DNA from: Lama guanicoe
Lineage: Eukaryota
Direction: 5' to 3'
Length of the DNA stretch: 64,000 nt
Assembly: GCA_013239625.1 (NCBI GenBank)
Contig: MU053136.1
Location: forward strand, 328,017 to 392,016
The notes beneath the pieces are model-generated. The model did not search any database and was not told the DNA's origin. It saw only the letters and a list, made by a program, of their open reading frames with translations. A program made the translations under genes and the position numbers. Below are positions 2,921 through 52,741 of this stretch, one piece after another (positions within the stretch are counted from its first letter, which is position 1; every line of letters begins with the position of its first letter).

Positions 2921-3254
2921 GTGAGGTGGGCTGGGCCAGCCAGCGCCTTTCTCCTTTGTGCCTGGCTTAGCTTTTTTGCAGCAGTTTTATTTACATTCCT
3001 GATCTGGGCATCAGCCCACTTCATGGATGAGAAAACAAGTGAGGCTCAGAGTAGAGCTTCCCAGAACTAGGTCAGCAGTCTTCTAAGCCCACACCTTCCC
3101 TTCCCGCTGGGTTTTGCAAGCTGGGGGGTGTACCTCCTTGCCCAGGCCTGCAACAGGCAGGTGGAGGGCCAGCCCAGCTTTGGGGTGGAGACTTGTACTA
3201 GAAAGAGCTTCCATGGGTGTCACTTGCTTCCCACCTCATTCTGTGCCTCTCCAG

Positions 3255-3353
3255 ATCAGGTGTTTGGCTGCCAGTTGGAATCACTGTGCCAGCGTGAAGG
3301 GGACACCGTGCCCAGCTTTGTGCGGCTCTGCATTGCTGCTGTCGAGAAGAGAG
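3255..3353 (+). CDS. ARHGAP9: ARHGAP9 coding exon (RhoGAP domain)
   Basis: tccag|AT CAG GTG TTT...AGA G|gtcact; DQVFGCQLESLCQREGDTVPSFVRLCIAAVEKRG. Confidence 0.94.
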
Positions 3354-3531
3354 GTCACTTTGCTAGAGACCCCAGAGTCTCCCCTTCCAACAGGCCAAGG
3401 CCCAGAATTCCCCACCTCCCTCACCCTAGTCTTCCTTCTGCCCCTTTTCTCTCCACCCTCAGATCTCTCACCAGCCCTCAGTACACACTTTAGAGCAGAA
3501 ATCCTTATCTGCTCTCTGTCTCATCTCCTAG

Positions 3532-3609
3532 GACTAGATGTGGATGGCATTTACCGGGTGAGTGGGAACTTGGCGGTGGTCCAGAAACTTCGCTTCTTGG
3601 TGGACAGAG
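3532..3609 (+). CDS. ARHGAP9: ARHGAP9 coding exon (RhoGAP arginine finger)
   Basis: cctag|GA...AGA G|gtaaga; GLDVDGIYRVSGNLAVVQKLRFLVDR with catalytic GIYR. Confidence 0.96.
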
Positions 3610-3757
3610 GTAAGAAGGCTGTGGGCAGGTAGTGGCACTAAGAACTTCATGCCTCAGAACCACAGGTGATTCTGAGTGAGGGAGCTGGCAGAACAGGGAG
3701 GTATTCTGGCTGGAGCTGCATGTTTCAGCTGTTGATTTCTTCTCATACATGTTGCAG

Positions 3758-3811
3758 AGCGGGCGATCACCTCCGACGGGAGGTACGTGTTCCCAGAACA
3801 GCCAGGACAAG
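3758..3811 (+). CDS. ARHGAP9: ARHGAP9 coding exon (54 nt)
   Basis: tgcag|AG...CAA G|gtactt; ERAITSDGRYVFPEQPGQ. Confidence 0.9.
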
Positions 3812-4067
3812 GTACTTACCTGGAGGGTCCCTCAGACTCATAAAAGTTTCTCACATCATCCCTGCTCCTCGTGAATTCGCCCCTGTCCTGCTCCTGGGAT
3901 GGTGGTCCCCACCCCTATCTCTGCTGTCTTGCTCCACTGTGGACCCCCTAGGCAGTCCTGTAGTCTGCCTTAACTGGATCTTTTCCCAAACTCCTGAACT
4001 CTCAGTCTCTGGGTCCCTCTGGTCCTTCATGAACCCTGAGCCCCTCTGTACTTCCTTCTTCTTCCAG

Positions 4068-4202
4068 AAGGCCGATTAGATTTGGACAGTGCTGAGTGGG
4101 ATGACATTCATGTGATCACGGGAGCTCTGAAGCTTTTTCTCAGGGAGCTACCCCAGCCTCTGGTGCCCTCACTGTTGCTGCCCCATTTTCGTGCCGCCCT
4201 TG
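4068..4202 (+). CDS. ARHGAP9: ARHGAP9 coding exon (RhoGAP)
   Basis: tccag|AA GGC...CTT G|gtaaag; DIHVITGALKLFLRELPQPLVP. Confidence 0.95.
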
Positions 4203-4548
4203 GTAAAGAATCGGAGCTTTGGGCAATACCCTTGATATGGAGTGGAGGGAGGGGAGACAAGAGTGATAAAGAATAGAGGTTCCCTTACACTCTTCTGTCC
4301 CATCCTGAGCACAGAGATGGAAAATAACTTTCAACTCATGTGCCAACTCCAGTTGTTTTTTGGTGAATATTTAGAGGGCTGACTTAGAAAGAATTCTAAG
4401 GCAGCGGTTGGGCTCAGTGAAAAAGAAAGCTGTGATAAATTAATGATGTCTTCCATGGGCATGGGAGAGAGTAGTGAGTTCACCCGCCCCGCCCTACCTA
4501 GCACCTTCCCTAACCTCACCCCTGTGCCCTTCCCGTCACTCTTTCTAG

Positions 4549-4654
4549 CACTCCCAGAATCAGAACAGCGCCTCACTCAAATACAAGAATTAATAAGCTC
4601 AATGCCAAAGCCCAACCATGACACTCTGCGGTACCTCCTGGAGCATTTATGCAG
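4549..4654 (+). CDS. ARHGAP9: ARHGAP9 coding exon (RhoGAP)
   Basis: tctag|CA...TGC AG|gtcagg; QIQELISSMPKPNHDTLRYLLEHLCR. Confidence 0.95.
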
Positions 4655-5245
4655 GTCAGGAAGACTGAACATCTGTGCAGGGAGGGTGGGTGGGGCATGC
4701 AGCAGGGACTCTGTTCGGGTCAGGTGAAGGTAGGGAAACACCTAAGACTGGTGAGCAGACAGAGGAAACCAGGGTCAAAGCCTTATTTGCTCAGTCGGTA
4801 TCATTTAAATGGGGGAACTGGGGACCAAGACAAGCCCAGGGATGCTGTGAGGGAAATAAGGAAAGAAACTCTAACCTTTCACTTCCCTCTGCGTCTTTGT
4901 CTTTCATTTGGACAATATGGATGACTTACTTGGCTGAGCTGGGCCTGGACAGTGACCTCTGAGAGAGGGTAGCCATTTGAATTAAAGCCCCCCAAATTGT
5001 GAGCGGAGAGGACTCTAGGGGCAGTCTCTGAAGCTGGGAAGAGGCAAGGGCATCCTAGGTTGCGTCTTCGAGTTGTGTCCTGACCCTGGTCCCATCTCTG
5101 ACCCCCTTGAGGCTCTCTCCTTGGTTTTCATCAGCCACCACACGGGATCCTGAAGCTAACTCTGCCTCAAACTTTGAAGGCTTGGGTTTATTTGAAGTGG
5201 CAAAGCTGCTGCCCTATAGCCCTGGCTGTTGGTCTTTTCTTACAG

Positions 5246-5417
5246 GGTGATAGCACACTCAGACAAGAACCGCATGACCCCCCACAACCTGGGAATTGTG
5301 TTTGGACCAACCCTATTTCGGCCGGAGCAGGAGACATCTGACCCAGCGGCCCACTCCCTCTACCCTGGGCAGCTAGTCCAGCTGATGCTCACCGACTTCG
5401 CCAGCCTCTTCCCCTGA
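5246..5417 (+). CDS. ARHGAP9: ARHGAP9 last coding exon
   Basis: tacag|G GTG...CCC TGA; VIAHSDKNRMTPHNLGIVFGPTLFRP...FASLFP*. Confidence 0.96.
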
Positions 5418-5665
5418 CTGGGGCAGGGAAGAAGAGAAAATATGTTTCCAGTGATCTTTGCTGGGTGCCCTTTGATGGGGGTGCAGGTGGGGGTGTTCTG
5501 TTTGGGGGACATCCCTTTAAATCCTGTGTCTCCCAGATGACTGTCTGCATCTTTGTGAGTCTGAGCTGAGGGGTTGGGATAGGGTGAGGAAGCTTTTCTA
5601 AAGAAGGAAGTGGACGGATTAACCCCTGCTTCTCTAGTTCCCTGTCATCACCTCTCCTTCAAGAT

Positions 5666-5678
5666 AATAACGTATAAA
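5666..5678 (+). terminator. candidate variant poly(A) signal of ARHGAP9 (AATAAC / TATAAA)
   Basis: No canonical AATAAA seen on + between the stop (5417) and the GLI1 3' end; AATAAC at 5666 and TATAAA at 5673 are the only A-rich hexamers. Confidence 0.45.
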
Positions 5679-5703
5679 GCAGGGCTCTTTCGGATGCACC
5701 TCC

Positions 5704-5709
5704 TTTATT
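5704..5709 (-). terminator. GLI1 poly(A) signal AATAAA
   Basis: tttatt on + strand, about 185 nt past the GLI1 stop, context gtttcctgatAATAAAgg. Confidence 0.85.
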
Positions 5710-5892
5710 ATCAGGAAACAGTATCACTATCAAATTCCTCCCCAGATACATTTAGACTGTGTACAGCCCCAGCCTGTACCTCCCATCCCTGGGGCATCCC
5801 GAGGTTGGGGAGGGGGTGCTATGGCTCTTCCTCCTGACTTCTTTGTGAGGATGGAAACCCCTTAGGAAACGTGTATCTGTGATTCCCGCTCT

Positions 5893-7631
5893 CTAGGCAC
5901 TAGAGTTGAGGAATTGTGTCTCTCCAGGCAGGGATCCCAGTAAAACACTCATGTTGCCCACAGCCATGTTGGGGGGCCCAGAGGGAGGTGGGGTGTGTTC
6001 AGAGCTGTCCCTCTGATCATGGGAAGGGGGAGGACTCAGCCCCTGGGCCTCATCCAGAATAGCCACAAAGTCCAGCTGAGTGTTGTCGAGATCAAGAGTG
6101 TCCAGAGGGTTACACACCTGCCCTTCGGGAGGAGGGTACAAGGCAGGGCCCCCTCCCAGCCTGCCCACCTCAGGATGGCCACAGCTGGGGTTGGTGCCTC
6201 CGGCCTTGAGGGGCCCATAGCAAGTGGGTAGTGGGGGCAGAAGTCGGGGTGGTGCTGCTGCCCTAATGGAAGCCTTGTTTGCCCCTACTGCAAAAGTTTC
6301 ATGACATGGCGAAGGGGCAGGATAGGAGCCTGATTTGTGAGTGGGCAAGTTAGGTGCAAAGCCAGGTCCATATGTGGCCACTGGGGCCTTGGCAGGGCTC
6401 GGGCTTACCTGGGAAGCCCCTAGAAACTTGGGACTCTGGTAGAGAGATTCTTGGACTGGGGGATCTCCCCTGCCCCCACCCTCCCACAGCAGCTCCTGTT
6501 GAGACTGAACATAATTACACACAAGCTGAGCCTTGAGCTGTCCTGTAGAAGGAGTGGGGGAATCAAAATCCAAGCCAGGCCTGGGTTCTGAAGTCAGATA
6601 ATCAGGGTGTGGCTGGGTATAGGTGTCTGACTGGGGATACTGGGGAGGGGGAGGCTGGGGGTAGAACAGAGGCTGTGGGCGTGGAGGCCCGTCATTGGGG
6701 TGGGCATTGAGGCAGGGTGTCAGTCCTGTGGAGTCAGAACCCACTGGACACCCCTGTTCTGGCTTCACCTGCACCTGTCCATAATGTTCAAGACGAGGAC
6801 TCTGGCTGTAGGCTCCAGTTGGAGCCTTGGGGCCGGGGTACAGCCCAGAGTGAGAAGGGAACTCACTCCATGCTTCTGGGGTGGGTTCAGGATAGGAGAC
6901 CTGCTGGGAACAGGGGTTGGGGCCATAGTTGGTGGGTGGACCAGGCCCAAGAGACAGGGAGCCTGGATCTCTAGCCCCATAAGGCTCAGCTGTCCCCGCC
7001 TCACATCCCCCATATCCCAGAATATCAGCAGTTGGGAAGTCTATATAAGGATTCAGACCACTGCCCATCATGGAGGTCCCAACCTCTGGCTCCTCCCGTA
7101 GCCCTCTGGTATCCATGGCAACATTTTCAGTGATGCTGGGAGGCTGTGGTGAGTAGACAGATGTTGAGAGTTGGTGATCGAAGTTCCGTCCTCCCCCTGT
7201 CACTGTGGGAGGTGTATGGACACAACCCAAGCTCTTGAACCTCTGGACTCTGGCTGGGGCAGGGCGGTCAGCAGCCCGGGCTGGGTCACTGGCTCTCCGG
7301 GTGACCCCTACATTGGGGTTGTATCCTGGATACTCGACTCGGCTTCTCCAGGGAGGTGCCGGAAGACCTCCCATCCGATCCAGGCTAGGTACTGCAGTGG
7401 GTGGGGTACTACCCGCCCTGGCTGAAGCATATCTTGCCCGGAGCAGGTAGTGTTGGGCAGGCGTGAGGCCAGGTAGAGAGGATGCCCCATTCTCTGGTGG
7501 GGAGCCAGGGGGGAAAGGGGAGGCCAGGGAGGAGCGGCGGCTGACAGTATAGGCTGAGCTGATGCTGCTGGAGCTGCTGCTGCGGCGGTCAAGAGAAACT
7601 GGGGGGCCCAGACGGCGGGACACAGGGGTGC
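5893..7631 (-). CDS. GLI1: GLI1 exon 12 (PKA RRxS sites, C-terminal transactivation domain, stop)
   Basis: Acceptor at 7633-7632; GTPVSRRLGPPVSLDRRSSSSSSISSAYTVSRRSS...LDLDNTQLDFVAILDE...QFLNSSA*; 1739 nt. Confidence 0.97.
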
Positions 7632-7801
7632 CTGCAAGTGATAGGCAGAAAAGGCAGGGTCGCCAGGGAGCCCTCTGCATCTCCCCCTGCTTCCCCCATG
7701 GGATAGCCTTGCCCTGGAATCCCAGGGAAGATTCCTTAACTATAAGCACTCCGTTCTGTCTCCTGCTCCCATTCCCTTTCTGCTTCTGGGCCATCAGGAT
7801 T

Positions 7802-7970
7802 CAGGGCTGCTATGAACAGTCCTACAGGTTGTACACTGCACAATCCTGGAGGACAGCATTCATGTCGTAGACTTTGTACATCACAATAATTTTCTGACAG
7901 ATGGAAGAAAAGTGTCTTGAGGAAAAGGGACCTTTTTCTAATTGTACAAAGGTGCTACATGGCAGCCCTG
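7802..7970. mobile_element. non-autonomous hAT DNA transposon fossil (MER91-like) in GLI1 intron 11
   Basis: Terminal inverted repeats cagggctgc (7802) / gcagccctg (7970); internal ggttgtacactgcacaa resembles recalled MER91 consensus. Confidence 0.65.
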
Positions 7971-8048
7971 AAGGGTGAAGTCCTCCTTCTAGCTTCAGGG
8001 AGGGTGCAGATTTCAGCCCAGCAACCAATGCCCACACTGAGCTCTCAC

Positions 8049-8316
8049 CAGTGTGGGGCAAGCTGGGCAGTTTAAGGCCCCGGGGCCCTATCGGCCGGAG
8101 TTGATGTAGCTGGTCCAGCCTGAGGTTCTCAAGGCGGCGAAGAGTAGACAGACCAGTGCCAGCAATGCAAGGCCCCTCATCCAAGCTGGACAGGTCCTCA
8201 GTGCTGCCCCCTGCATTTCCGGTCATTTCCACACCGCTGTCTGTATTAGCTGCGCTGCCTGCTGGGGAGTGGTCACTGCTGCAGGATGACTGGGCCCCAG
8301 GGCTCGGCTGTGGCTT
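8049..8316 (-). CDS. GLI1: GLI1 exon 11 (beta-TrCP degron DSGVEM, NES)
   Basis: 268 nt, KPQPSPGAQSSCSSDHSPAGSAANTDSGVEM...LRRLENLRL; AG/GT flanks. Confidence 0.96.
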
Positions 8317-8479
8317 CTGTGGGGAAGACGAGGGCTGAGGGTGGCACCCATCCCCCTTCCCCACAGCTCCCTGAACTTGGTGAGTGGCTCAAGCCTGTGA
8401 CCCAGTGACTGCTTACGGGCGTAGAGAGGGCTGAGCAGGTGAGACAGGCAAACTGGAGGAGAGCTGTTGATGAGACGAG

Positions 8480-8720
8480 TCTAGACTACCTGGGATCAAA
8501 CTTGTGCTCTTCATTCTATGCCTCTGGACAATTTCTTTATGCCTGAGTTTCCTCATTTGAAAATGGGAAGCGTAAGTTCCTGTCTCATGACATTATTATG
8601 AGGAGTACGTGAAATTAGACAGGAAACAGCATCACTAACAAATTCCTCCCCAGATATATTTAGACTGTGTACAGCCCCAGGTAAAAGGCTTCGAGTAATA
8701 TCCTCAGTCCTATATAAGAG
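8480..8720 (+). mobile_element. MIR SINE remnant interrupted by a 61-bp insertion
   Basis: Core-like ctgagtttcctcatttgaaaatggg ... ttattatgagg, resuming as gtaaaaggctt after 8680; ends approximate. Confidence 0.65.
8620..8680. repeat. dispersed direct repeat of 5712-5772 (GLI1 3'UTR segment)
   Basis: 58 of 61 bases identical by direct comparison, no gaps. Confidence 0.95.
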
Positions 8721-8915
8721 TTTGTCGAACCAATTAAGTACTTAATTACACTAAAAACCCTAGATTTAGGGTAGCCCAAGGAATAACACTCAGATAAGAG
8801 ACTGGAGGACTGGCCACAGAAGAGAGCCTTACATAGCAGGGATGGATGAGTTGGGACGGGACTAGAAAGATGTCGGCAGGGCGGGCGGGGGTATGGAGGC
8901 AGGGGGTTGCCTCAC

Positions 8916-9146
8916 CATGGCACCCTCTGGCACGGTCAGTCTGCTCTCCTCCCTGATGGGACCTCCATCCCGCTCCCTCTTGGGCTCCACTGTGGAAAGA
9001 GCCGGTGCCCGGGGCAGAGGGCCATCCCCTCGGTGCCGCTTGGTCACGTGGGCATCAGGACCGTGCACTGTCTTGACATGTTTCCGGAGCGAACTGGGAT
9101 CTGTGTAGCGTTTGGTGCAGCCAGGGAGCTTACACACATATGGCTT
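8916..9146 (-). CDS. GLI1: GLI1 exon 10 (zinc finger 5, NLS)
   Basis: 231 nt, [28 protein letters not shown]...PEGAM. Confidence 0.97.
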
Positions 9147-9585
9147 CTGTTGAGTGGAGAGTGAAGACAGCAGGCAAAAGGATCAAAGTGGGAAAATGCA
9201 GAAGTGGGAAAAAGGGGTGGCCCCAAGCGAGGACAAGGGGGGCCAGGGGGGAATGCATAGCACCCAAGGAAGGACGGAGGAGTAGGGCCCTTGGAGTAAA
9301 AGATGAGAGGATCAAGGGGAAGATTAGGAAAACTGACAGCCCAGCTGGGGAAAGCCGAGGGGCTGAACCCAGGTCTGCGAGGCCTCATAAATTCAGGGTT
9401 GAAGGGACCAGGGGTCTCCTCCGGATAGAGTGGGTCTATTCTAGTTTAGCCCTTTGGCTAGTTAGAGGTAGGGGGAGGGGTGTTAGGTGGACAGTTGCAG
9501 TTTCAGAAAGGCCTTCTCCAGGTGAACTATGTGGGTGGGGAGGACTCACCTCTGTGGAGTGGGTGCTGGGCTAAGGGATTTCTTA

Positions 9586-9813
<228 letters not shown>

Positions 9814-10416
9814 CTAGGGGATATGGGGGTCAAAGGATCGCTCTCAGACAGAAGGACATGGAGATTAGAGGACCCCTGAATCTCAAAAGGGACATGTATC
9901 AGAGAATATAACTCAAGATGGAAGAGCTTTGGAGCTTTGAAATTCCCAAAATTTAGGGACAAGGGCAGGCAAGAGCTGGGGGAACAGAAGTAGCTGGAGG
10001 CCCTCTGCCTGCTGGGATGTGGAGATGATGCAGTGAGCATTGCCTGCTCAAGCCAGAGCACATCTCCCTGCACAGGCAGCCCAGATTGTCTTAGGATGGG
10101 GTCATCCTGGGAGGCTCTGTGTCCTCAGTCCAGGGTTTCTCCAGGGTTTCAGGCACAGTGCCTGCAAGTCAAATGTCCACAAAAATGTTTTAATTTCTTT
10201 TAAAAACAAGGGAAAAAAATTAGCTTTTAGGTCCAAGGAAATGTTCTAATATATAACATTAATGTTTATCTTTATACCAACAGATTCATAAGATACAATT
10301 CTTAAATACATTTATGGAGAAAGGGGCCTATGAAGGCAAAAGTCATATTGGGCTCTGCCTTGGTGGGGAGCCCCAATTTAGGGAGGGACCCTGAACTTGA
10401 GGAGGGGGTGCCTCAC

Positions 10417-10566
10417 CGTGCACTTGTGTGGCTTCTCGCCTGTGTGTCTGCGCATGTGCACCACCAACATGTACTGGGCTTTGAAGGGCCTCAGCTCCCT
10501 GGAGCAGCCCCCCCAATGGCACACGAACTCCTTCCGCTCTCCGTGGATGTGCTCGCTGTTGATGTG
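10417..10566 (-). CDS. GLI1: GLI1 exon 8 (zinc fingers 1-3)
   Basis: 150 nt, [50 protein letters not shown]. Confidence 0.97.
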
Positions 10567-10889
10567 CTGAAGGAGAAGATGCAGAGGCTCTCCAAGGTTC
10601 CTTATGCCCCTGAGATCCAGAACAGGCCTTCTCTTGACCTCCCACCTCACATCTTTCCGTGGCTCCCCTTCATGGGGGGAGAAGGGGCAGGAAGAACCTC
10701 AGAGCCCACATCTCTGTTCTTCCAAGTTCCTAAAACAAAGCTACAGCTCCTGAGTTTCTGCCTACACAGGTAAGCACTCAACCTGTGACCTCAATATCCT
10801 CTGACCTGCTCTTACCCTGATTCCCCCATGTCCCACCCAGAGTGTCCTATAGGCTCTGGCCAGCATTCCTGTTACCCCCTGGGGCTCAC

Positions 10890-11027
10890 GTGCACCAGTT
10901 GCTCCTGGGAATCGAATTCCTGACTGCAGCCATCCCACCGGCAGTCAGTCTCATACACAGAATCAGGCTCAGGCTTCTCATCTCTCTCCAGGTCCTCCCG
11001 CCCATCCAGCATCCCCAGCAGGGGATC
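10890..11027 (-). CDS. GLI1: GLI1 exon 7 (zinc finger 1 start)
   Basis: 138 nt, DPLLGMLDGREDLE...VYETDCRWDGCSQEFDSQEQLVH. Confidence 0.96.
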
Positions 11028-11117
11028 CTAGGGCAGGAGAGAAAATCCTAGGGTCACCTGAGTGACAGCTTTTGTTTCATTCAGTTTCCAGAGGTAAAGT
11101 TCCCCGCCCCCTCTTAC

Positions 11118-11207
11118 CTGTGTGCCTGTGGAGTTGGGGCTGGACATATCACCTTCCAAGGGTTCCTCTGGGCACTTGCTAACCAGCACATCCAGCTCAG
11201 ACTTCAG
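11118..11207 (-). CDS. GLI1: GLI1 exon 6
   Basis: 90 nt, LKSELDVLVSKCPEEPLEGDMSSPNSTGTQ. Confidence 0.95.
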
Positions 11208-11556
11208 CTACCCAAGGGAAGAGATGAGGATGATGAAGGGAGAAGTGGGCAGAAGGAAGAGGGAGCCCAGCCAGGTCTTCCTGCCCTGAGTGCCCCCACC
11301 CAAGCAGCTGGAACCTCTGGGTTTGGAAGCGACTTCCTCCTTAGACTGCACTGGTGAATGGGATGGGCAAATGGTGGGATCTCACTTGGAAGCCTGATTC
11401 AACCCTAAGGAGTGAACCCTGGCACCCAAACCCCTTTATTTTTCTGGCACTGAAAACTTTTATACCCCTTGTTCTTCCATCACCTTTCCCCTAAAAAGTC
11501 CACCACACACCCACCCTGAGCTGAGGGAAATCAAATGGCAATATGAGGACTCTCAC

Positions 11557-11701
11557 CTGGCAAGTTGGGAGGGGTCCCCGGGACTGAGGATGTGGCATCA
11601 TCCCACCCTGGGTGGGGTCATGGGGACCACAAGGTTGGACCCCGAAGGAAGGCGAATTCCCTTTTTGGTGATTCATCTGGGGTGGGAATCCCAGAGATGG
11701 G
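11557..11701 (-). CDS. GLI1: GLI1 exon 5
   Basis: 145 nt, PSLGFPPQMNHQKG...PLPTCQ. Confidence 0.95.
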
Positions 11702-11953
11702 CTGAGGAGGAGGAGAAGGGGAGGAAGTTACTTAGGACTGTCATCTCACAAAGTCTCTGGAGTTCTTGAGCTATTGGAGGGTTTCTGGAAGATGGTATGG
11801 GAGGTGGTTGAGGCAGTCCGATGGAAGTACTGAGGATTTCTATGCCTTTAAAATGATAAGGATTCAAATAGGGTCAGGTGGTTTGGAGGGCTTGAGGCTT
11901 TTAATGGGGTTCGGTGGGTCTTTAGGAGTCTCTTAGCTCAAGGCTGTGTGCAC

Positions 11954-12149
11954 CTCATGGTGCCGATGGAGAGGTGACCATAGGAGCCCCCTGGAGATGC
12001 ACAGCGTGAATTGATGAAGGCCACGAGGGAGCTGGGCGAGGTGCGAATAACTGTCTGCAGGTCCAGGCTGGCATCCGACAGAGGTGAGATGGAGAGTGCC
12101 CGCTTCTTGGTCAATTTGACTGCACTCCGGGGAGGAGGAAACAATGGGG
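11954..12149 (-). CDS. GLI1: GLI1 exon 4 (SUFU-binding SYGH motif)
   Basis: 196 nt, KKRALSISPLSDASLDLQTVIRTSPSSLVAFINSR...GSYGHLSIG. Confidence 0.96.
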
Positions 12150-12253
12150 CTGGGGCAGGAAACAGGGGAGACAGATATGGTAAAGGGGCACATCTCCCCA
12201 CACATCTAGCCAGTGAGTCCTGACCCTCAGCAAAAAAAAAAAAAAAAAAAAAA

Positions 12254-12284
12254 NNNNNNNNNNNNNNNNNNNNNNNNNNNNNNN
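12254..12284. other. assembly gap (31 N) inside a poly(A) run (12232-12303) in GLI1 intron 3
   Basis: Run of n flanked by about 20 A on each side. Confidence 0.99.
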
Positions 12285-12477
12285 AAAAAAAAAAAAAAAA
12301 AAAGACACTAGACTCTGCCCAGTTGACCCCCTCTGTGACCTCCTGATCATGCTCTGACTTGTTGATCCTATCTCGAGGCATTTCCTCTTCCAAGGTAGAT
12401 CCCTTGCCCTCCAACTTTCTCCCTCAGGACAAGTCCCAAAGGAGCAGAAAGGAAAGAGATGTTGCCTGAGGCCTCAC

Positions 12478-12570
12478 CCTCAGTGCAGCTGTTGGTCTCT
12501 CTGGCTGGCCCATAACTATGGGGGCTGGACATGAGGTTGGCCTGGTGGCAGAAAGGCAGACCGGGCAGTC
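12478..12570 (-). CDS. GLI1: GLI1 exon 3
   Basis: 93 nt, GLPGLPFCHQANLMSSPHSYGPARETNSCTE. Confidence 0.95.
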
Positions 12571-12801
12571 CTAGAAAAGAGATCCAGCTGGAATGGGAGA
12601 TTGAAATGGAAGATACACAAGGCCTCACCTTGAAACCCCAGGTAAGGCCTGATCCCATATTCCAAGCCCATATGACATGGGGCCTCAACTCTTTTTGTAT
12701 ATGGGAAACTGACATGGGGTAGGAGATGGCAGAGGGATCCCTGGGGCTGGGTGAGAGATCTGCCAGTTGTCAAGGTCGGGGGATTGATAATAAGCACTGA
12801 C

Positions 12802-12901
12802 CTTCCGTCCCCATGCTCGGGCCCCCCTGAGTGGGGAGGGGCCGGAGACAGCAGGGCTCGCCGTAGCTACTGACTGGCGGTGGGGTCATCGAGTTGAACA
12901 T
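12802..12901 (-). CDS. GLI1: GLI1 exon 2, coding part (start codon); exon begins at 12928
   Basis: accATG TTC AAC TCG = MFNSMTPPPVSSYGEPCCLRP; acceptor 27 nt upstream, donor gtcagt. Confidence 0.96.
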
Positions 12902-13559
12902 GGTGTCTCAGAGGAGAGTGTGGGGACACTGTAGGAGGGGAAGGGAGATCTGCAAGTTATAAAGGCAGGAGGGAAATACAGAAGGTCAGATAACTAAGTC
13001 AGGCACAGAACCCTGGGCAAAGCACCTCCAAGACATCTGCCATGGGAAATCAACTTGAAATGAGCATCACTCAGCCAGGGAGAGAGAGGGTAAGGAGAGA
13101 AGTCCCATAGAGGCAGTCTTAGGGATCTTTGTGGGAACTGGGTAGAAGCTTTGCCTGGATGGTCTGTGTGTTGTGTGTGTGTGGAGTGTTCTGGACTTAA
13201 CTGTGGCTATGTGGGTTCCAAGGGATTTTATACCTGGGCCCTCTATTTCTTCTTCCTCTGACCATGGGCCAGCTATGAGGGGTGGGATGGGGAAATTCAT
13301 GCAGAGGAGTGTCTGACTTAAAGCACTGGACTGGCTGCTCTGCCTGAACCCCTTTCCCTTTCCTTCATTTGTTGCTTGCCGTCCAGGTTCCAGCAGAGGG
13401 AGCCCTCGCCACGGCCCAGACAGAGGGGCTGGTAGGGCCAGGAGGGAACACGGATGATCTGCCGTTTTCTCTCTAACGCAGAAAACTGTGTGTTGAAGGG
13501 GATAGGGTTTCTGAGCGAAGCCTCCCGGGTCTGTTGGGTACAAAGGATGGAAGCTGGGG

Positions 13560-15360
13560 TTATTCAGGGGTGGTCTGGATCTGGGCGCCTGCTTAACTCT
13601 TTTGGTCGTTTTGAGGAACAGAAAAGGGACTGTGAGGGAAAACTTTGGGAGAATTAAAAAACAAAAACAAAAAACAAACCAAAGTCATCATCCATTAGAG
13701 AGGAGTAATGAGGAAGAATAGAGTATCTGTCCGCTTTTCTCCTCAAACTCCAGTTTTTTGCTCCGCCCCGGGTTTTCCGCTTTCCCGGGACTGAGGGTGG
13801 GGTGGGGCGGGGTAGGGTGGAGACCGACCGGGAGCGGGCCGGCCGGCGCGGTGGGTGATCCCGGGATGCTGGGATTTAGGGTGAGGGCGGGGTAAGATGG
13901 GGAGCGGAACCCGGACCCCATGACCCAGCCCGAGACCCGCAGCCTGGGCTGTACCCTTCCTAACTCCTCCTTTCCCAGCGGAGATCCTAATCCCGCAACC
14001 AAGACCTCTCAGCTCGACCTTGGCACAATGTTGGGGGGCACAGCTGGCTGGCAGCTGGAATGGGGGACACTTCTCCCGCCTCCTTCCTCTATGACTCACC
14101 CAGAGTAAGGAGGCGGGGGCTTGTAAACGACCCCCCAAAACTAGAGACTCCCCCAAACATGCCTGCTCAGTCATCTTCCTGCCCCACTGCCCAGCCACAG
14201 GGGAGCCCGAGATGGAAATGGGGCGATGTCTCTTCTCGCCCACGCGTGCCAAAGCCCACCTACGTCTCCCCTTCACACTGGTGAAAGGAAAATTTCGCCA
14301 ACTTTTCCAGCTTCAATTAAGCTTTTCTGGGGTGTGGATGAGAGCGCAGGTTGGGACAGGGAGCTCTAGGGTTCCCTTGCTGGAGCCCTGAATCATCTTC
14401 TGTGTCTCCCAATTTTCCAGAGTGCCCCCCCGTCGCACCCCCGCCCCTCAACTCCCAGGAGTCGGCCCCGCCCCCTTCTCCCGGTCCCGCCTTCCCCGCC
14501 CCCGTGCCTCCTCGGCCCACCCAAGTCGCCGCCGCAGGCTCTGGCTGCAGACGGCTCCGCTTCCCCCGCCCGCTCCGGGAGCCCAGTCGAGCGAGCCACA
14601 GTGGAGGGGGGGGAGCGATGCGGATTGAGAGGCGGGACACATTCTTGCCTCCTCCCCTCGGAGCATCCAGAGCTGGCAGTGGCGCGGGGGGACGGGGTGG
14701 GGGCTCTGTTGGAGAGTGGGAGTCCCTCGGTGAGGTGGAAAAGAAAGAATCCAGAAACTATAAGGGGAGAAAGTGATTAGGAAAAATAAGGTGTGTCTGG
14801 GGAGGGGGCGGTTCCTGGGTATCCCAGCTGGCTTCCCAAGGGTTAACCACTCCAGACCCCCGGGAACCCCCTAGTGACGTCAAGGGCGGGGTCTGTACCG
14901 TCTGGCAGGGGATGCCTTGCCTAGGAGATAATGGGGGGGTCTCTGGACCCCGCCCCCCAAGGAAAAATCCTTATTCAGACCTTTACAACGCCCCCCGAGA
15001 AATCGCCCTGCCTTCTCCCTCTAATGGACCGTAAAGACCTATTCTATGACGACCCCGGTTCTCCAGCCCCTAAAACCTTTAGTCCCCAGTGTCTGTGGGA
15101 TCCCCTTTGCCTAATCTTATCCCCAAAGCTCGCTGCCCAGGGCGGATTGTTTCGGGGTCACGGGGCCTGAAAGAGACTTCGGAGCGGGGAGCAAGGGCAG
15201 GCAGGGTGGTCTGAGGCAGAGGAGGGGCCTCGGTCCCCAGCTCCCGTTTGGGAGGGGGGCCAACCGAGATGCACAGGCAGGCAGTGGCCAGTGGTCCCGC
15301 CCCATCCCAGTAGGGGTCTCCCTGAGGCTGGCCCCAGCTGCCCCGGTGGTCCTGAGGTCA
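13560..15360. promoter_or_regulatory. GC/CpG-rich GLI1 intron 1 regulatory region with GLI-like sites
   Basis: High CpG density; 8/9 matches to GACCACCCA at 13567, 13852, 14129, 15203; GC boxes; TGACGTCA CRE at 14875-14882. Confidence 0.6.
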
Positions 15361-18671: not shown

Positions 18672-19429
18672 CTAGCTGCAGCCACAGGCCTCTACCACCA
18701 TATCTGGCACATCTGTCTTGACCACATTGCCATCACGGTCGAGGTAGAGGAGAGAGAGAGGCCTTCGGGCAGTGGGGACACAGCAAGAAGTACCCAAGGG
18801 CCAAGGGTTATTGGCCTTAAGGAGGCTGAAGACGGCAGAATGGAAGGAGGCAGCGATGCCTGGGCTGCCAGCCAGGTGGGGGGGGCACTGCCCACTGCAG
18901 AAATTCAGCTGGTACCCCTCAGGTTGCAGGATCCAGTCCCGCCATCCCAGGTCCTGGAAGTCTACATAATGGTCTCGCCTGCAACATAAGGGGGTCTCAG
19001 GCTCACAGGTGGGGGTCCTCCTCCTGGCCCGGCCTGCTCCAAGCTCATTGGGCCGGGTCTTAAGCTCCAGGAAGGGCCGCTGCTCTCCCGTTGTGTCCAG
19101 GAGCCACCGAGGTTGTCGGGCAGCTGTGCTGTTGCCTTCTAGGGGTCTGCAGTCCAGCCGGAGTTTCAGGACACCAGGCTCCTCAGCCCTCAAGCCACTA
19201 GAGGGCAGAGTCAGGGCATGCCAGCCTGGGGTTGTCATTTGGTGCTCCGCCAGGAGGACACGGGATCCTCGGCGTTTCCTTCGAGGGCCCCATCGGAAAA
19301 TCCTCAAGGAAAGAGTGCCAGGAAGGGTGGGGAGCACGTGCAGCCAGAGGCGAGCGTGGTACAGGTGGTAGGACCGAGGAGTGGGCAGGTGGAAGGTGAG
19401 CATGGAGCTGCAGGTGGAGGTGGAGGAGT
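18672..19429 (-). CDS. INHBE: INHBE exon 2 (inhibin/activin beta E prodomain and mature TGF-beta domain)
   Basis: Acceptor 19431-19430; RARRR furin site, nine-cysteine mature domain ending [15 protein letters not shown]; with exon 1 = 1056 nt, 351 aa. Confidence 0.97.
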
Positions 19430-19669
19430 CTGCCAGAAAGATGGACAAGGGACTGAGGACGGTGAGCGGAGATGACGCTGTCCTCTGAGACTCCCACAAG
19501 CCCTGCCCGCTGCTCTGCCTAGCACCCACATTTAGAAGAAACAGGGACTCTGCAACTGGTTCCTGCTCCCAATTCCTCTTCCTCTTACACCCGACTCCCT
19601 CTGCTTCTGCTGTCGTTCTGCCCTTCTGCCTCCCTTTTCCTGCCTGCTCTCTGTCTCTCCCTCACCCAC

Positions 19670-24429: not shown

Positions 24430-25172
24430 CTAACTGCACCCACAGGCCTCTACCACCATGTCAAGTATGTCAGTCTTGACAATGTTGCTGTACTTGTCAT
24501 AGTAGAGCAGAGACAGGGGGCGCCGGGCCGTGGGCACGCAGCATGAGCCCCCTCCAGTGGTGCCTGCAGCTGAGTTGGCCTTGAAGAGATTGAGCACCAC
24601 TGTGTGAAAAGAGGCAGCAATACCAGGCATGCCTGCCATGTGCAGCGGGCACTGTCCTGTGCAGAAGTTCATTGCGTAGCCCTCAGGCTGGATGATCCAG
24701 TCGTGCCAGCCAATCTCACGGAAGTCCACAAAGAACTCTTGTCGACAGCACATCCTGGACCTCCCCTGGCAGTCGATGCCTCGCCGGAGAACCCGGTGCT
24801 TGCCCCCAACTCTTACCCGGGCTGTCACAAAAGGCCTATGGGCAGCCCTGCCCAGGATGACTGAGCTCTGGGCTAACTGGCCTTCAGGAACCAGCTCCAG
24901 GATCAGGTGCCCCTGGCTGCAGGCAGCCTGAGCCTCAGACCCCAGGAGGAACTGGTGCCAACCACTGTCATCTACCTCCAGCAGGTGCTGAGTGGCCAAG
25001 GTGAGGTTGGTGTCATGTGGGCCTAGCTCAAGGACCCTCACCTTCAAAGTCCAGGTGGTATTGGGAGGGAGCTGCACAAAGAACATGAGGCTGGCCTGCT
25101 GGACCTCCAAGCCACCAGCAGTTTGATTAGAGAAGTGGAAATCAAGACGAGTCTGGTCGATGCTGGAGAGGC
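24430..25172 (-). CDS. INHBC: INHBC exon 2 (inhibin/activin beta C)
   Basis: Acceptor 25174-25173; RR|GIDCQGRSRMCCRQEFFVDFREIGWHDWIIQPEGYAMNFC...VEACGCS*; with exon 1 = 1056 nt, 351 aa. Confidence 0.97.
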
Positions 25173-25677
25173 CTGTGGACACAAGAAGCCCCTGTCACTG
25201 TGGTCTTCTGAGTGTCAATTCTACCAACACCTATCTGTTCTCAGCATACTTGAACTCCCTTAGTTTTTTCTTGACCACATTGTTGGCATTGTTAACCACC
25301 CTTTTCTTCTTGAAAATCTTTTCTCCTTTGGCTTTCATGACACAACTCTCTTATGATTCTTCCTTAATTTTCTTTGCTGGCTTTTCCTTCTCTGATCATC
25401 CCTTCAGTGTAAGAGTTCTCCAAGGTCTATTGCTGACCTTCACTTTTACTCTACTCTACAGAGGGGAACTCTGGTCCACACTCACAGTCAGTCGACACAG
25501 TTTATGCTGGTGATTCCTAAATCTATATGTCCAGTCTAGGCCATTTTGCATCTTGGGAATCACCAAGCTTCAGGCCTAAACTTCTAATCGCTTAATTTTA
25601 TTACATGCGTGTCCTGTTGGCATATTAGAATCAATTTATCCCAAGGGAAATCATTATTTTTCTCCCTATATACTTCT

Positions 25678-30979: not shown

Positions 30980-31212
30980 TGGCAGAGTGGTATAGCGGTC
31001 AAGGTCATGGATTTCAGACTTAGACTGCCTGGCTCTACCACTTCCCAGTCATGTGACCTTGGGCTAGTTACTCAACCCCTTAAGCCTCAGTTTCATCACC
31101 TCTAAAATGGGGATAATGACAGTATTTGCTTCACTGGCTTATTGTGAGGATCTCAAGGAGTTAACATGTATGTAAAAGGCTCCGAACACATTAAGCATTG
31201 TATAAGTGTCAG
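30980..31212 (+). mobile_element. MIR SINE
   Basis: tgtgaccttgggctagttactcaacccctaagcctcagtttcatcacctctaaaatggggataat core; further MIR pieces near 30165-30290, 30760-30890, 33410-33545, 35055-35215. Confidence 0.8.
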
Positions 31213-32187
31213 TGATTTCTACTACACACTAGCCTCTGATGATAACATGAGGTATAAGTGACAGTTCCGGACCTTAAGGGGTTACAGACTATGGGAAGAC
31301 ACACTTCACAGAAAATCTGGAAACAAGGCAATTCCACAAGGAGGGATCAGGTTCAGGGTAAGGGTGTGAGGGCCACCAGCGAGGGAGCCCCTCACCCTCA
31401 GGTCAGGGAGGGTTTTTGAGGATGGGAGTGCTTGGTCTTGAAGGGAGTAGATGCTGACCAGGGGAAAGGCGCCAGGAATGGGATGTGCTTGTCACACCTA
31501 AGACAGAGCTTGCAAGTAGCTCAGAGGCCAGACAGATCACTTTGTGTTCTGTTTCTTGAATCCTGCCCCTGAACTCTTGATCTCTTGAGCTGCCAACTAA
31601 ATTCTCTAACTCCTCTCCCCTCTGTGAAAGGAAATCTCTCTTCTCTATCCTCCATCCTTTATCTACTTTTCTGAGTCCCATTTTCGCCCTGTTCTGATGT
31701 GGGGACCCCAAGGTATTAAGGCAAGAGGGCAAGGGTAGGTTGGAGATGTATGCCAATCTTGATGTTTTACTTTTCTCCCTTTACCCACATGAGGCATCTG
31801 GGGGAGAGGGGAAAGGAGAGGCTGGATCCTGGGGCCCGAGGGAGGACAGACTCTCCAGCTCCCAGACCCTGGGTCCAGGCCCAGGAAGTGGATGGGCTCA
31901 CATCACAGCCTGTGGAAGTTTGTGGGGCCTGCAGAGGAGCCAGAGAAGAGAGGGGAAGGCGGTCTTAAAAGAAATGAAACTTATCTACGTCTCAGCTGCC
32001 CATTGGTCAGGTCAAAACTACAAGAGAGAACCTGGGGGATGGGAGCCTGTGATTAGGAGATTACAGGCTGTGAGAGGTGAGACTTGGGATGGTTTTGGGG
32101 AGAAAGTCAGAGGTTAGGTTGGGGAGGAAAGTTTTCCTTTCATAAACAGATTGGGTTTGGGGGAAGATCTACAGACCAAGAACCCAC

Positions 32188-33133: not shown

Positions 33134-33223
33134 GGAGGAAGGGAAGTGTTCTAGCCAGGTCTTCCGGGTCAGAGGGAAGGAGGAAGGGAAGTGTTCTAGC
33201 CAGGTCTTCCAGGTCACAGGGAA
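33134..33223. repeat. 45-bp tandem duplication upstream of INHBC
   Basis: ggaggaagggaagtgttctagccaggtcttccRggtcaSagggaa x2, 2 mismatches. Confidence 0.95.
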
Positions 33224-33548
33224 GTTGGAAAGTGGGAAGGGAGCTTGAGAGCTAGAGTTCCTCACCCTTGGGGGTTTCTTTTGTTTAAGAAAATAAATTT
33301 TGAGATTTCTCAGAATTCCTGGTTCTCTCCCCAAAATGTTCCTGAGCAGTGGATCTCAGGTCAAGGCCATTACATCCATAGCAGGGATTTACCTGGCAGG
33401 AGTGGGCAGGTGGAGTTAGGAGCATACGTTTTCAAGCCAGATGGCCTTGGTTAAAATACTCTCTTCCTTTTATTAGCTGTGTGCCTGTGGGCAAGTTACT
33501 TGACCTCTCTTCAATTTCTTCATCAGAGAAATGGGGAAAATGATTGCC

Positions 33549-34040
33549 TACAATTCTAAAATTCAAAAACCCCTGTAATTCATACATTTTTGGGGGTAGC
33601 TCATATGGTGACTAAAGCTGACCTGAAGAGGAGTGAGGTTGTCTACGGTCTTTAAAAAATCATACTGGAGACTATTCATACGTTTTCACTCCAGAAATAC
33701 ATATTTTTGTATATATACGTTTTTTATTGAAGTATAGTCAGTTTACAATGTTGTATCAATTTCTGGTGTACAGCACAATGCTTCAGTTATACATGAACAT
33801 ATATATATTCGTTTTCATATTATTTTTCACTGTAAGTTACTACAAGATATTGAATATAGTTCCCTGTGCTATATAGCACAAACATGTTTACAGAAATATT
33901 ATTTGATTATGGGATGCTACCCCTAGGAGTGGTATATAATATACAGCATAATGTACTGTGTTACCTTTCTAAAACTTGAAATTTTCTGAATTATGAAACA
34001 TTCCTGGCTCTATGGATTTTGAATATGGAATTATAGATTA
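33549..34040. mobile_element. Tigger-family MITE (MER46C-like) interrupted by a young L1 3' end at about 33700-33890
   Basis: Flanks resemble recalled MER46C (attcatacgttttcact...ttacctttctaaaa); the insert is flanked by cagaaata at 33692 and 33891. Confidence 0.6.
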
Positions 34041-41106: not shown

Positions 41107-41372
41107 CTTTCTTACTTATTTATTTATTCATTTATTTATTTTTATTGAGGTATAGTCAGTTTACAATGTTGTGTCAATTTCTGGTGTACAGCACAATGCT
41201 TCAGTCATACACAAATATACGTATATTCATTTTCATATTCTTTCTCACCGTAAGCTGCTACAAGATACTGAATATAGTTCCCTGTGCTATACAGTATAAA
41301 CTGTTTATCTATTTTATATATACCAGTCAGTATCTGCAAATCTCTAACTCCCAGTTTATCCCTTCCTACCCC
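41107..41372 (-). mobile_element. lineage-specific L1 3' end, 5'-truncated
   Basis: ttttattgaggtatagtcagtttacaatgttg... very similar to 33720-33880 and 52470-52740; TSD actcagttt at 41098 and 41373. Confidence 0.8.
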
Positions 41373-45062: not shown

Positions 45063-45805
45063 TCTGTCCTTTATTGTTGACTTGTGTTTTGCTCAATTCC
45101 CACAGTAGGGGACACAAATTTAGCCATATATATATGTACACATAACGTACACACACACACACACACGTACACACAACACGCGCGTGCGCGTGCACACAGA
45201 CACACACACACACACACACACACAGTCTGCCACTTGAGGCCCTCTGGAAAGATTATAGATTTTCAATTAAGAATTACAGGCATTCACTTGCCACTGTTTC
45301 GTCTTACCAACCCAGCTGTTTTCACTTAACATAGATCCAGTCCTGTTAGTTAACTGCTTTGGTGCACTGTGAGCCTATTATGTAGTATTTGCTTAGAAAT
45401 CAGAGAAACTCAGTTTATTTTTAGTCTTTGTTAATCTGTCCTTTATTGTTGACTTGTGTTTTGCTCAATTCCCACAGTAGGGGACACAAATTTAGCCATA
45501 TATATATGTACACATAACGTACACACACACACACACACGTACACACAACACGCGCGTGCGCGTGCACACAGACACACACACACACACACACACACAGTCT
45601 GCCACTTGAGGCCCTCTGGAAAGATTATAGATTTTCAATTAAGAATTACAGGCATTCACTTGCCACTGTTTCGTCTTACCAACCCAGCTGTTTTCACTTA
45701 ACATAGATCCAGTCCTGTTAGTTAACTGCTTTGGTGCACTGTGAGCCTATTATGTAGTATTTGCTTAGAAATCAGAGAAACTCAGTTTATTTTTAGTCTT
45801 TGTTA
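45063..45805. repeat. perfect 371-bp tandem duplication (period 372) containing a compound TA/CA/CG microsatellite
   Basis: 45063-45433 and 45435-45805 read identically; the ORF track gives identical 81-aa translations 372 nt apart. Confidence 0.97.
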
Positions 45806-52469: not shown

Positions 52470-52741
52470 ATAGACTTGTGGTTGGTTGCCAGCGGGGAGG
52501 AGGGTGGGAAGGGATAAACTGAGAGTTCAAGATTTGCAGATACTGACTGGTATATATAAAGTAAATAAACAGATTTATACTACATAGCCCAGGGAAATAT
52601 ATTCAATATCTTGTAGTAGCTCATGGTGAAAAAGAATATGAAAATGAATATATGTGTGTTCATGTGTGACTGAAAAATTGTGCTGTGCACCAGAAATTGA
52701 CATGACATTGTAAACTGACTATACTTCAATTAAAAAAAAAA
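52470..52741 (+). mobile_element. young lineage-specific L1 3' end nested in the older L1
   Basis: Reverse complement of the 41107-41372 element; ends gtaaactgactatacttcaatt + poly(A). Confidence 0.8.

Follow-up and report, generated by a model that had tools for sequence, protein, structure and literature searches.

The window, by which we mean the whole 64-kb stretch of DNA that was analyzed, carries on its minus strand a gene that was identified as GLI1 from the reading frame of its exon 12, which is 91% identical to beluga GLI1. The gene is also ~90% identical to GLI1 of seal, oryx and dolphin, with no camelid among the matches listed. A short piece of the GLI1 3'UTR, hereafter the donor, has a second copy in intron 10 of the same gene, hereafter the acceptor. 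The parts of the gene that bear on this pair are:

8916–9146, minus strand: GLI1 exon 10, encoding the last zinc finger and the linker that follows it (tblastn and translation)
8317–8915, minus strand: GLI1 intron 10, GT...AG
8049–8316, minus strand: GLI1 exon 11, containing DSGVEM and lying between the two copies
5893–7631, minus strand: coding part of GLI1 exon 12 to the stop codon, also between the two copies
5704–5709, minus strand: GLI1 poly(A) signal AATAAA, outside the copied piece
8620–8680, plus strand: acceptor copy within GLI1 intron 10, net insert ~58 nt; read on the minus strand, it has the sense orientation of GLI1
5712–5772, plus strand: donor copy, in the GLI1 3'UTR; on the GLI1 strand, 2 nt separate its end from the poly(A) signal downstream

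A plus-strand gene, presumably ARHGAP9, converges on GLI1, with its stop codon at 5415–5417 and a TATAAA at 5673. This TATAAA is the only near-canonical hexamer of the plus-strand gene in 5400–5710 and lies ~30 nt from the GLI1 AATAAA; the 3' ends of the two genes nearly overlap. Upstream of GLI1 are two inhibin beta second exons, at 18672–19661 and 24430–25194, which are 69% alike over their last 300 nt. The window's INHBC exon 2 shares 93% identity with the Camelus bactrianus protein and at most 88% with the other 94 matches, which makes the window camelid DNA from a species other than C. bactrianus, probably a South American one; the second inhibin beta gene we take to be INHBE. An assembly gap of 31 N was located at about 12254–12284, within a long T run of a GLI1 intron.

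A repeat search of positions 3000–14000 returned one clear dispersed pair, 61 nt long and 95% identical, and self-BLAST of the 64-kb window found the pair with an E-value of 2.8e-20 and no third copy of the 61-mer. Acceptor and donor are identical at 58 of 61 positions, lie on the same strand and are 2908 bp apart, start to start; a sequence-only reading of this DNA had given the pair exactly so in coordinates, strand, spacing and identity. The three mismatches, at 5722/8630, 5730/8638 and 5749/8657, leave perfect runs of 10, 7, 18 and 23 nt, the last being the longest, and amount to a divergence of 4.9% (1.0–13.7%). The same reading had described the 3'UTR copy as ending just short of the GLI1 AATAAA and as containing UGUA motifs, and the intronic copy as lacking hexamer and poly(A) tail. 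All of this was confirmed: the gap to the signal (minus strand, 5709–5704) is 2 nt, two TGTA are present on the sense strand of the 3'UTR copy, and no AATAAA, ATTAAA or poly(A) was found in the intronic copy. The latter retains one sense-strand TGTA, the second having been lost through a mismatch, and downstream of it intron 10 contains weak hexamers only, with no AATAAA or ATTAAA.

Other repeats were noted in the window. An exact tandem duplicate of 371–372 bp at 45063–45805, with a 1-nt spacer, an (AC)n tract in each unit and 100% identity, suggests either an overlap artefact of the assembly or a tandem duplication that happened very recently. A 45-nt tandem duplication at 33134–33224 has two copies that are 95% alike, and a younger dispersed repeat of ~240 nt, presumably the 3' end of an L1, is present in three copies (33720–33890, 41135–41371 and 52502–52739) that are 86–89% alike.

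The acceptor lies within an old dispersed repeat that has four relatives in the window and that we take to be a MIR. Its interruption was judged against a paralogous copy in the window, not against a repeat consensus:

30981–31214, plus strand: paralogous MIR-like copy, the uninterrupted comparator and no part of the event
8447–8619, plus strand: left part of the SINE, matched to 31021–31159 by nhmmer (E 0.0036), from 8447 by pairwise alignment, and by a four-copy profile (E 2e-6)
8681–8725, plus strand: right part of the SINE, which continues in the paralogue at 31172–31213

The nhmmer score against the paralogue rose from 12.9 bits for the left flank to 22.3 bits (E 3e-6) with the insert removed, and the match then crossed the junction and reached 31214. 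When the right flank was scored against the continuation of the paralogue, 17 of 18,022 decoy 50-mers and 19 of 5000 shuffles did as well; the insert itself scored at the decoy median, with 8868 of 18,022 decoys as high. A shuffle control with cheaper gaps gave a modest result (73/2000), and the left flank, when cut to 50 nt and aligned by itself, fell out of register with the paralogue. By itself, the right flank found no paralogue with nhmmer or with the four-copy profile; the profile, which gave 15.2 bits with the insert removed, 13.9 bits with it filled and 13.5 bits for the left flank only, is too weak to detect the right flank. The best-fitting excisions were 53–55 nt long and started at 8618–8628, with the optimum at 54 and not 58 nt, and the breakpoints on the paralogue fall at about 31165 for the left flank and from 31172 for the right. 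On balance, the alignments indicate that the SINE is split and that the intron was the acceptor of the copy. The earlier claim of MIR-like sequence on both sides thus stands on one paralogous copy in the window, and more weakly on the four-copy profile, with the name MIR presumed.

Orthologs of intron 10 were sought in metagenome contigs. With exon 11 as the query there were 597 pattern matches, none of which was confirmed; with exon 10 as the query, 80 of 89 loci were kept, nearly all of them zinc-finger-only, and none of the 80 had a blastn match to intron 10 or to the UTR. Since no orthologous empty site was obtained in this way, we infer the exact breakpoints. The features at the junctions are:

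8620–8623, plus strand: CAGG at the left end, common to the start of the donor (microhomology) and recurring at 8678–8681
8678–8681, plus strand: CAGG at the right end, of which CAG is common to the end of the donor
8577–8585, plus strand: arm of an inverted repeat, 9 nt here, that pairs with 8617–8625 across the left junction

The donor starts with CAGG and ends with CAG, and beyond these bases it differs from the flanks of the acceptor. Counted from the CAGG repeat, the net insert is about 58 nt. The repeat is either microhomology or a 4-nt TSD and is best read as microhomology; the earlier statement that no TSD is visible passes over the 4-nt CAGG at both ends. No A- or T-tract of at least 5 bp was found at either end of the insert. 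A TTTT/A-like site is present on the minus strand at 8681–8687, 1–2 nt from the right junction, and is not duplicated on the left.

The inverted repeat, which was found post hoc, is a possible snap-back (fold-back) primer. One equally long occurs at 35 of 5980 random positions. With the base found at 8618 in a diverged relative, described below, it is contiguous over 7 nt, a length reached at 278 of 5980 random positions, and the MIR consensus presumably favors the base of the relative as the older. In the paralogue, the right-flank bases that are shared follow a T and not a G, and the CAGG repeat may therefore not have pre-existed. The left junction may have arisen in either of two ways, both of them compatible with the paralogue: CAG may have been present in the target beforehand, or a shorter homology may have been lengthened by fold-back.

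Other features at or near the insert were considered and set aside. Intron gain was rejected, the insert not being GT–AG on either strand. The insert looks like a plus-strand mini-exon, with AG before it and GT after it, but this follows from the CAGG repeat, and there was no spliced contig and there were no joints. A TTATTAT-containing match of 11/13 between 8593–8605 and 5705–5717 was taken as chance; it is 20 nt away from the junction, and similar bases occur at that place in the paralogue. A perfect 16-nt palindrome at 8732–8747, 51 nt to the right of the insert, is one of nine palindromes of at least 14 nt in the window and is not linked to the insert.

The presence of the insert was followed in 24 sequencing runs listed for 8320–8915, 14 of which contain all 61 sampled 31-letter words. 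These 14 runs bear five organism labels and come from five studies; eight may be the source of the window, and six (X7–X12, from two studies) are not flagged as a possible source. Runs X16–X18 share 0.36–0.44 of the sampled words and X20–X24 share 0.13 or 0; the latter were not counted as evidence. No 31-mer touching the insert occurs in the UTR copy, where the longest shared run is 23 nt, and runs with all of the sampled words should therefore hold the intronic copy.

Contigs of four of the 24 runs were compared with the locus: X7 and X13 (DNA), and X15 and X19, which are RNA libraries whose contigs over the intron need not be transcripts. No locus contig was displayed for X7 or X13 in this filtered comparison; because both runs contain all the sampled words, the filter is the likely cause, and not absence of the locus. 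Nothing in these two whole DNA runs was placed on 8620–8680 at 80% likeness, the filter omitting records even of the locus itself, yet a 40-nt match (33/40) from another locus was picked up at 8530–8569. X15 held a diverged allele with 11 substitutions over 590 nt, eight of them also present in X19. The contigs of X15 and X19 had no joints or gaps and no substitution within 8620–8680, and one 395-nt contig of X19 spans 8492–8885, covering both junctions without a gap. The sequence-only reading had named two findings that would count against it, namely that the 61-mer was a common interspersed repeat or that reads did not support the intronic copy. The window and the two filtered DNA runs gave no further 61-mer, and run contigs contained the intronic copy, with a contig of the diverged relative bridging both junctions.

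From these substitutions, the insert is older than a split of ~1.9% intron divergence (0.9–3.3%), which sets a minimum age only. At this distance, the diverged relative would most probably be an Old World camel; the split between New and Old World camelids has been put at 11–25 million years (PMC4884201). No empty allele was seen in the two runs covering the site, both of which had been found by their containing the insert. An absence of changes in 61 nt between the two lineages is expected with P = 0.32, and constraint on the insert was rejected on this ground. The repeat pair is real and old, and apparently fixed.

We consider that the intronic copy most probably arose as a repair-mediated duplication in the germ line of an ancestral camelid, apparently fixed since then and probably neutral, and give this reading a probability of about 0.75. 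The reconstruction starts from what was directly observed: two copies with their orientation and spacing, the homologies at the ends, no poly(A), a repeat that continues across the insert, and presence in independent runs and in a relative that is 2% diverged. A double-strand break would have occurred inside the old MIR-like SINE in intron 10 of GLI1 in that ancestral germ line. The left broken 3' end would then have annealed through a few bases (CA to CAGG) to the GLI1 3'UTR 2.9 kb away, its homology perhaps lengthened to CAGGAA by fold-back on 8577–8585. After ~58 nt had been copied, the strand would have been displaced and re-annealed to the right end through 1–3 bases, presumably with little or no loss of target sequence, as in SDSA or a polymerase-theta-type template switch. 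Afterwards, the copy would have gathered its three differences from the donor, and it has no evident function. The earlier proposal of a templated insertion in break repair, as opposed to L1 retrotransposition, is supported as to origin; such events form a class that has already been described and are nothing unusual.

Instead, a nascent RNA made nearby might have been reverse-transcribed into the break, without L1 endonuclease cleavage, as in class 2 TSIs or other events of the endonuclease-independent type, the RNA coming from the 3' end of GLI1 or from read-through of the convergent plus-strand gene. The donor does sit where the two genes end: the GLI1 AATAAA is at 5709–5704, and 34 nt separate the plus-strand TATAAA at 5673 from the donor. 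Class 2 TSIs have microhomology but neither TSD nor poly(A); in experiments, TSIs came preferentially from transcribed sequence and became fewer under RT inhibitors (PMC5110952). However, the insert contains no splice junction or poly(A), the TSIs described in that study derive from distant regions, and DNA-templated duplications as a rule have their donor less than 3 kb away, whatever their location (PMC2671141). With proximity the rule, and with 3'UTR donors making up 11 of the 824 cases in that survey, a donor in the UTR needs no RNA route. Because the donor lies within one exon at the end of the transcript, an RNA template would leave the identical sequence. We regard a DNA template as likelier and the RNA-templated patch as unlikely.

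Retrotransposition of a fragment of GLI1 or antisense RNA by L1 (TPRT) could call on the TTTT/A-like minus-strand site at the right junction, with CAGG as a 4-nt TSD. Against this, the insert carries no poly(A) and no poly(A) signal, its end repeat is shorter than the 5 bp of class 1 TSIPs (PMC5110952), the A-run that follows the junction on the right has no duplicate on the left, and the terminal CAG is also present in the donor, so that microhomology explains the end repeat. TPRT is consequently a highly improbable origin.

A different proposal is that the pair has a function or a recurrent consequence, either through recombination between the copies by SSA or through intronic cleavage driven by the intronic copy. 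Both would give a GLI1 of ~453 aa, made of exons 1–10 and 17 intron-coded residues, that has all of the zinc fingers but no DSGVEM or activation domain. DSGVEM, at residue 462 in beluga GLI1, is a degron, and the activation domain lies in the region that would be lost. A DSG degron consensus is given in a review (PMC6406693). The geometry suits the proposal: exon 11 with DSGVEM and the coding part of exon 12 lie between the copies, as the sequence-only reading had pointed out for SSA, and read-through from exon 10 stops after 17 codons of intron 10. Deletion was supported by reporter repeats of 50–72 nt (PMC6695211), and the insert is unchanged between two lineages. Pace et al. (PMC2671141) already mention that such pairs might later cause loss of the DNA that separates them.

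Nevertheless, no deletion was seen: in the four runs, neither 8620 nor 8680 showed a joint, an indel or a loose end. The test was weak, the locus contigs of both DNA runs not being displayed, the UTR copy lying outside the stretch compared, and contigs dropping rare variants. By the reporter data, a 61-nt repeat that is 5% diverged and perfect over no more than 23 nt in a row would also be a poor substrate. Divergence of 1–3% substantially suppresses deletions between 287-bp repeats (PMC5959236), perfect 50-nt repeats recombine roughly half as often as longer ones, and for perfect repeats of up to 23 nt next to a non-homologous tail deletion could hardly be detected (PMC6695211); these data on diverged and short repeats make frequent deletion unlikely. 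Against intronic cleavage, the intronic copy has lost one TGTA, the intron downstream offers only the weak hexamers, and RNA-library contigs run across the insert. As for a truncated product, GLI1 is described as having no repressor domain (PMC6406693), and the unchanged 61 nt carry little weight at P = 0.32. Literature searches on a truncated GLI1 product of intronic polyadenylation and on GLI1–ARHGAP9 readthrough gave nothing relevant. That the pair is a functional repeat seems to us very unlikely.

An even less probable extension would make the pair a recurrent deletion substrate of camelids, where loss of 2.9 kb joins intron 10 to the gene's own poly(A) signal; the product would be a stable, DNA-binding but non-activating GLI1 of 453 aa, a lineage-specific dominant-negative allele that might underlie some limb defects. 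Polydactyly is a recognized defect of South American camelids. In humans, loss of GLI1 causes postaxial polydactyly (PMC8657641). If the deletion allele exists, it would encode a truncated GLI1 with the DNA-binding domain intact, and its transcript, with the stop codon in the last exon, should escape nonsense-mediated decay.

An assembly artefact or a small common interspersed repeat is scarcely credible: the window does contain the likely assembly duplicate at 45063–45805, but the copies differ by three mismatches, 14 runs hold every sampled word, six of them unflagged as source, the relative's contig bridges both junctions, and the search at 80% likeness in the two filtered DNA runs was empty at the insert while recovering the 33/40 match nearby.

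Read as a repair-mediated duplication, the insert matters little. Mammalian genomes contain hundreds of such repair patches (824 in human and 202 in cow, in a count based on TEs; PMC2671141), which makes one patch in 64 kb unremarkable. It could be used as a presence/absence marker for camelid or artiodactyl phylogeny, and as a fossil of break repair: an aligned outgroup would allow the junction to be reconstructed, with pre-existing CAG homology weighed against fold-back priming. It would have greater importance only if the 2.9-kb deletion allele exists.

Among known kinds of short duplication, the pair resembles the doublets of Thomas et al. 2004 in being a local duplication of less than 100 bp. 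Doublets reportedly have a same-strand bias and an insertion-like origin, and are said to be exact matches of at least 25 bp spaced near 1 kb, whereas the GLI1 pair is diverged, with a longest run of 23 nt, and 2.9 kb apart. As in the snap-back synthesis of SD-MMEJ (PMC5728401), fold-back of the inverted repeat that spans the left junction may have generated the homology with which the donor was invaded. SD-MMEJ motifs are at least 4 bp long with their far end no more than 30 bp from the junction, but the far end of the 8577–8585 arm is ~43 nt from 8620, and the inserts described for SD-MMEJ are copied from the flanks and not from 2.9 kb away.

The class 2 TSIs and TSIPs of Onozawa and Aplan 2016 (PMC5110952) share with the GLI1 insert the microhomology and the lack of a poly(A) tail or signal and of a TSD of at least 5 bp. 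Those described have distant donors, and the TSIPs are polymorphic, whereas at GLI1 the donor lies 2.9 kb off and two lineages have the insert in common. Class 1 TSIPs and L1 TPRT products are marked by a TSD of at least 5 bp and by a poly(A) of 10–40 nt with AATAAA upstream; the GLI1 insert has an end repeat of at most 4 nt and no such tail.

The closest likeness is to the repair-mediated duplications of Pace et al. 2009 (PMC2671141), who collected TEs interrupted by at least 50 bp. Their human set comprises 1136 duplicons, of which 824 have a donor within 5 kb and 753 within 3 kb; 295 acceptors are in introns and 11 of the 824 donors are in 3'UTRs. Poly(A/T) was present in none of the 39 proximal cases examined, microhomology was 2–9 nt, and cow, dog, mouse and rat gave 179–266 cases each, 202 of them in cow. 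At GLI1, an old TE is split by more than 50 bp (a 61-nt match with a net insert of ~58 nt and a best fit of 53–55 nt). The two TE fragments have one orientation and follow each other within 30 bp, as judged against one paralogue and weakly by the four-copy profile. The donor is on the same chromosome, farther than 50 bp and nearer than 5 kb (2908 bp), and no poly(A/T) of at least 5 bp is found at an end; the probable microhomology, the intronic acceptor and the 3'UTR donor are further likenesses. Four of the six defining features of the class were found here and none was contradicted. The other two concern copy number in the genome, where one other copy was seen in the 64 kb and none in the two filtered DNA runs, and breakpoints judged against an empty site, where CAGG/CAG common to the donor was observed and the paralogue suggests that the homologies may have been shorter. 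The differences are that the GLI1 insert is short, ~58 nt against a class mean of 162 bp, and that donor and acceptor lie in one gene and bracket coding exons; camelids are not among the species whose survey is described there. By this comparison, the GLI1 insert appears to fit as a further case of the class of repair-mediated duplications described by Pace et al. (PMC2671141).
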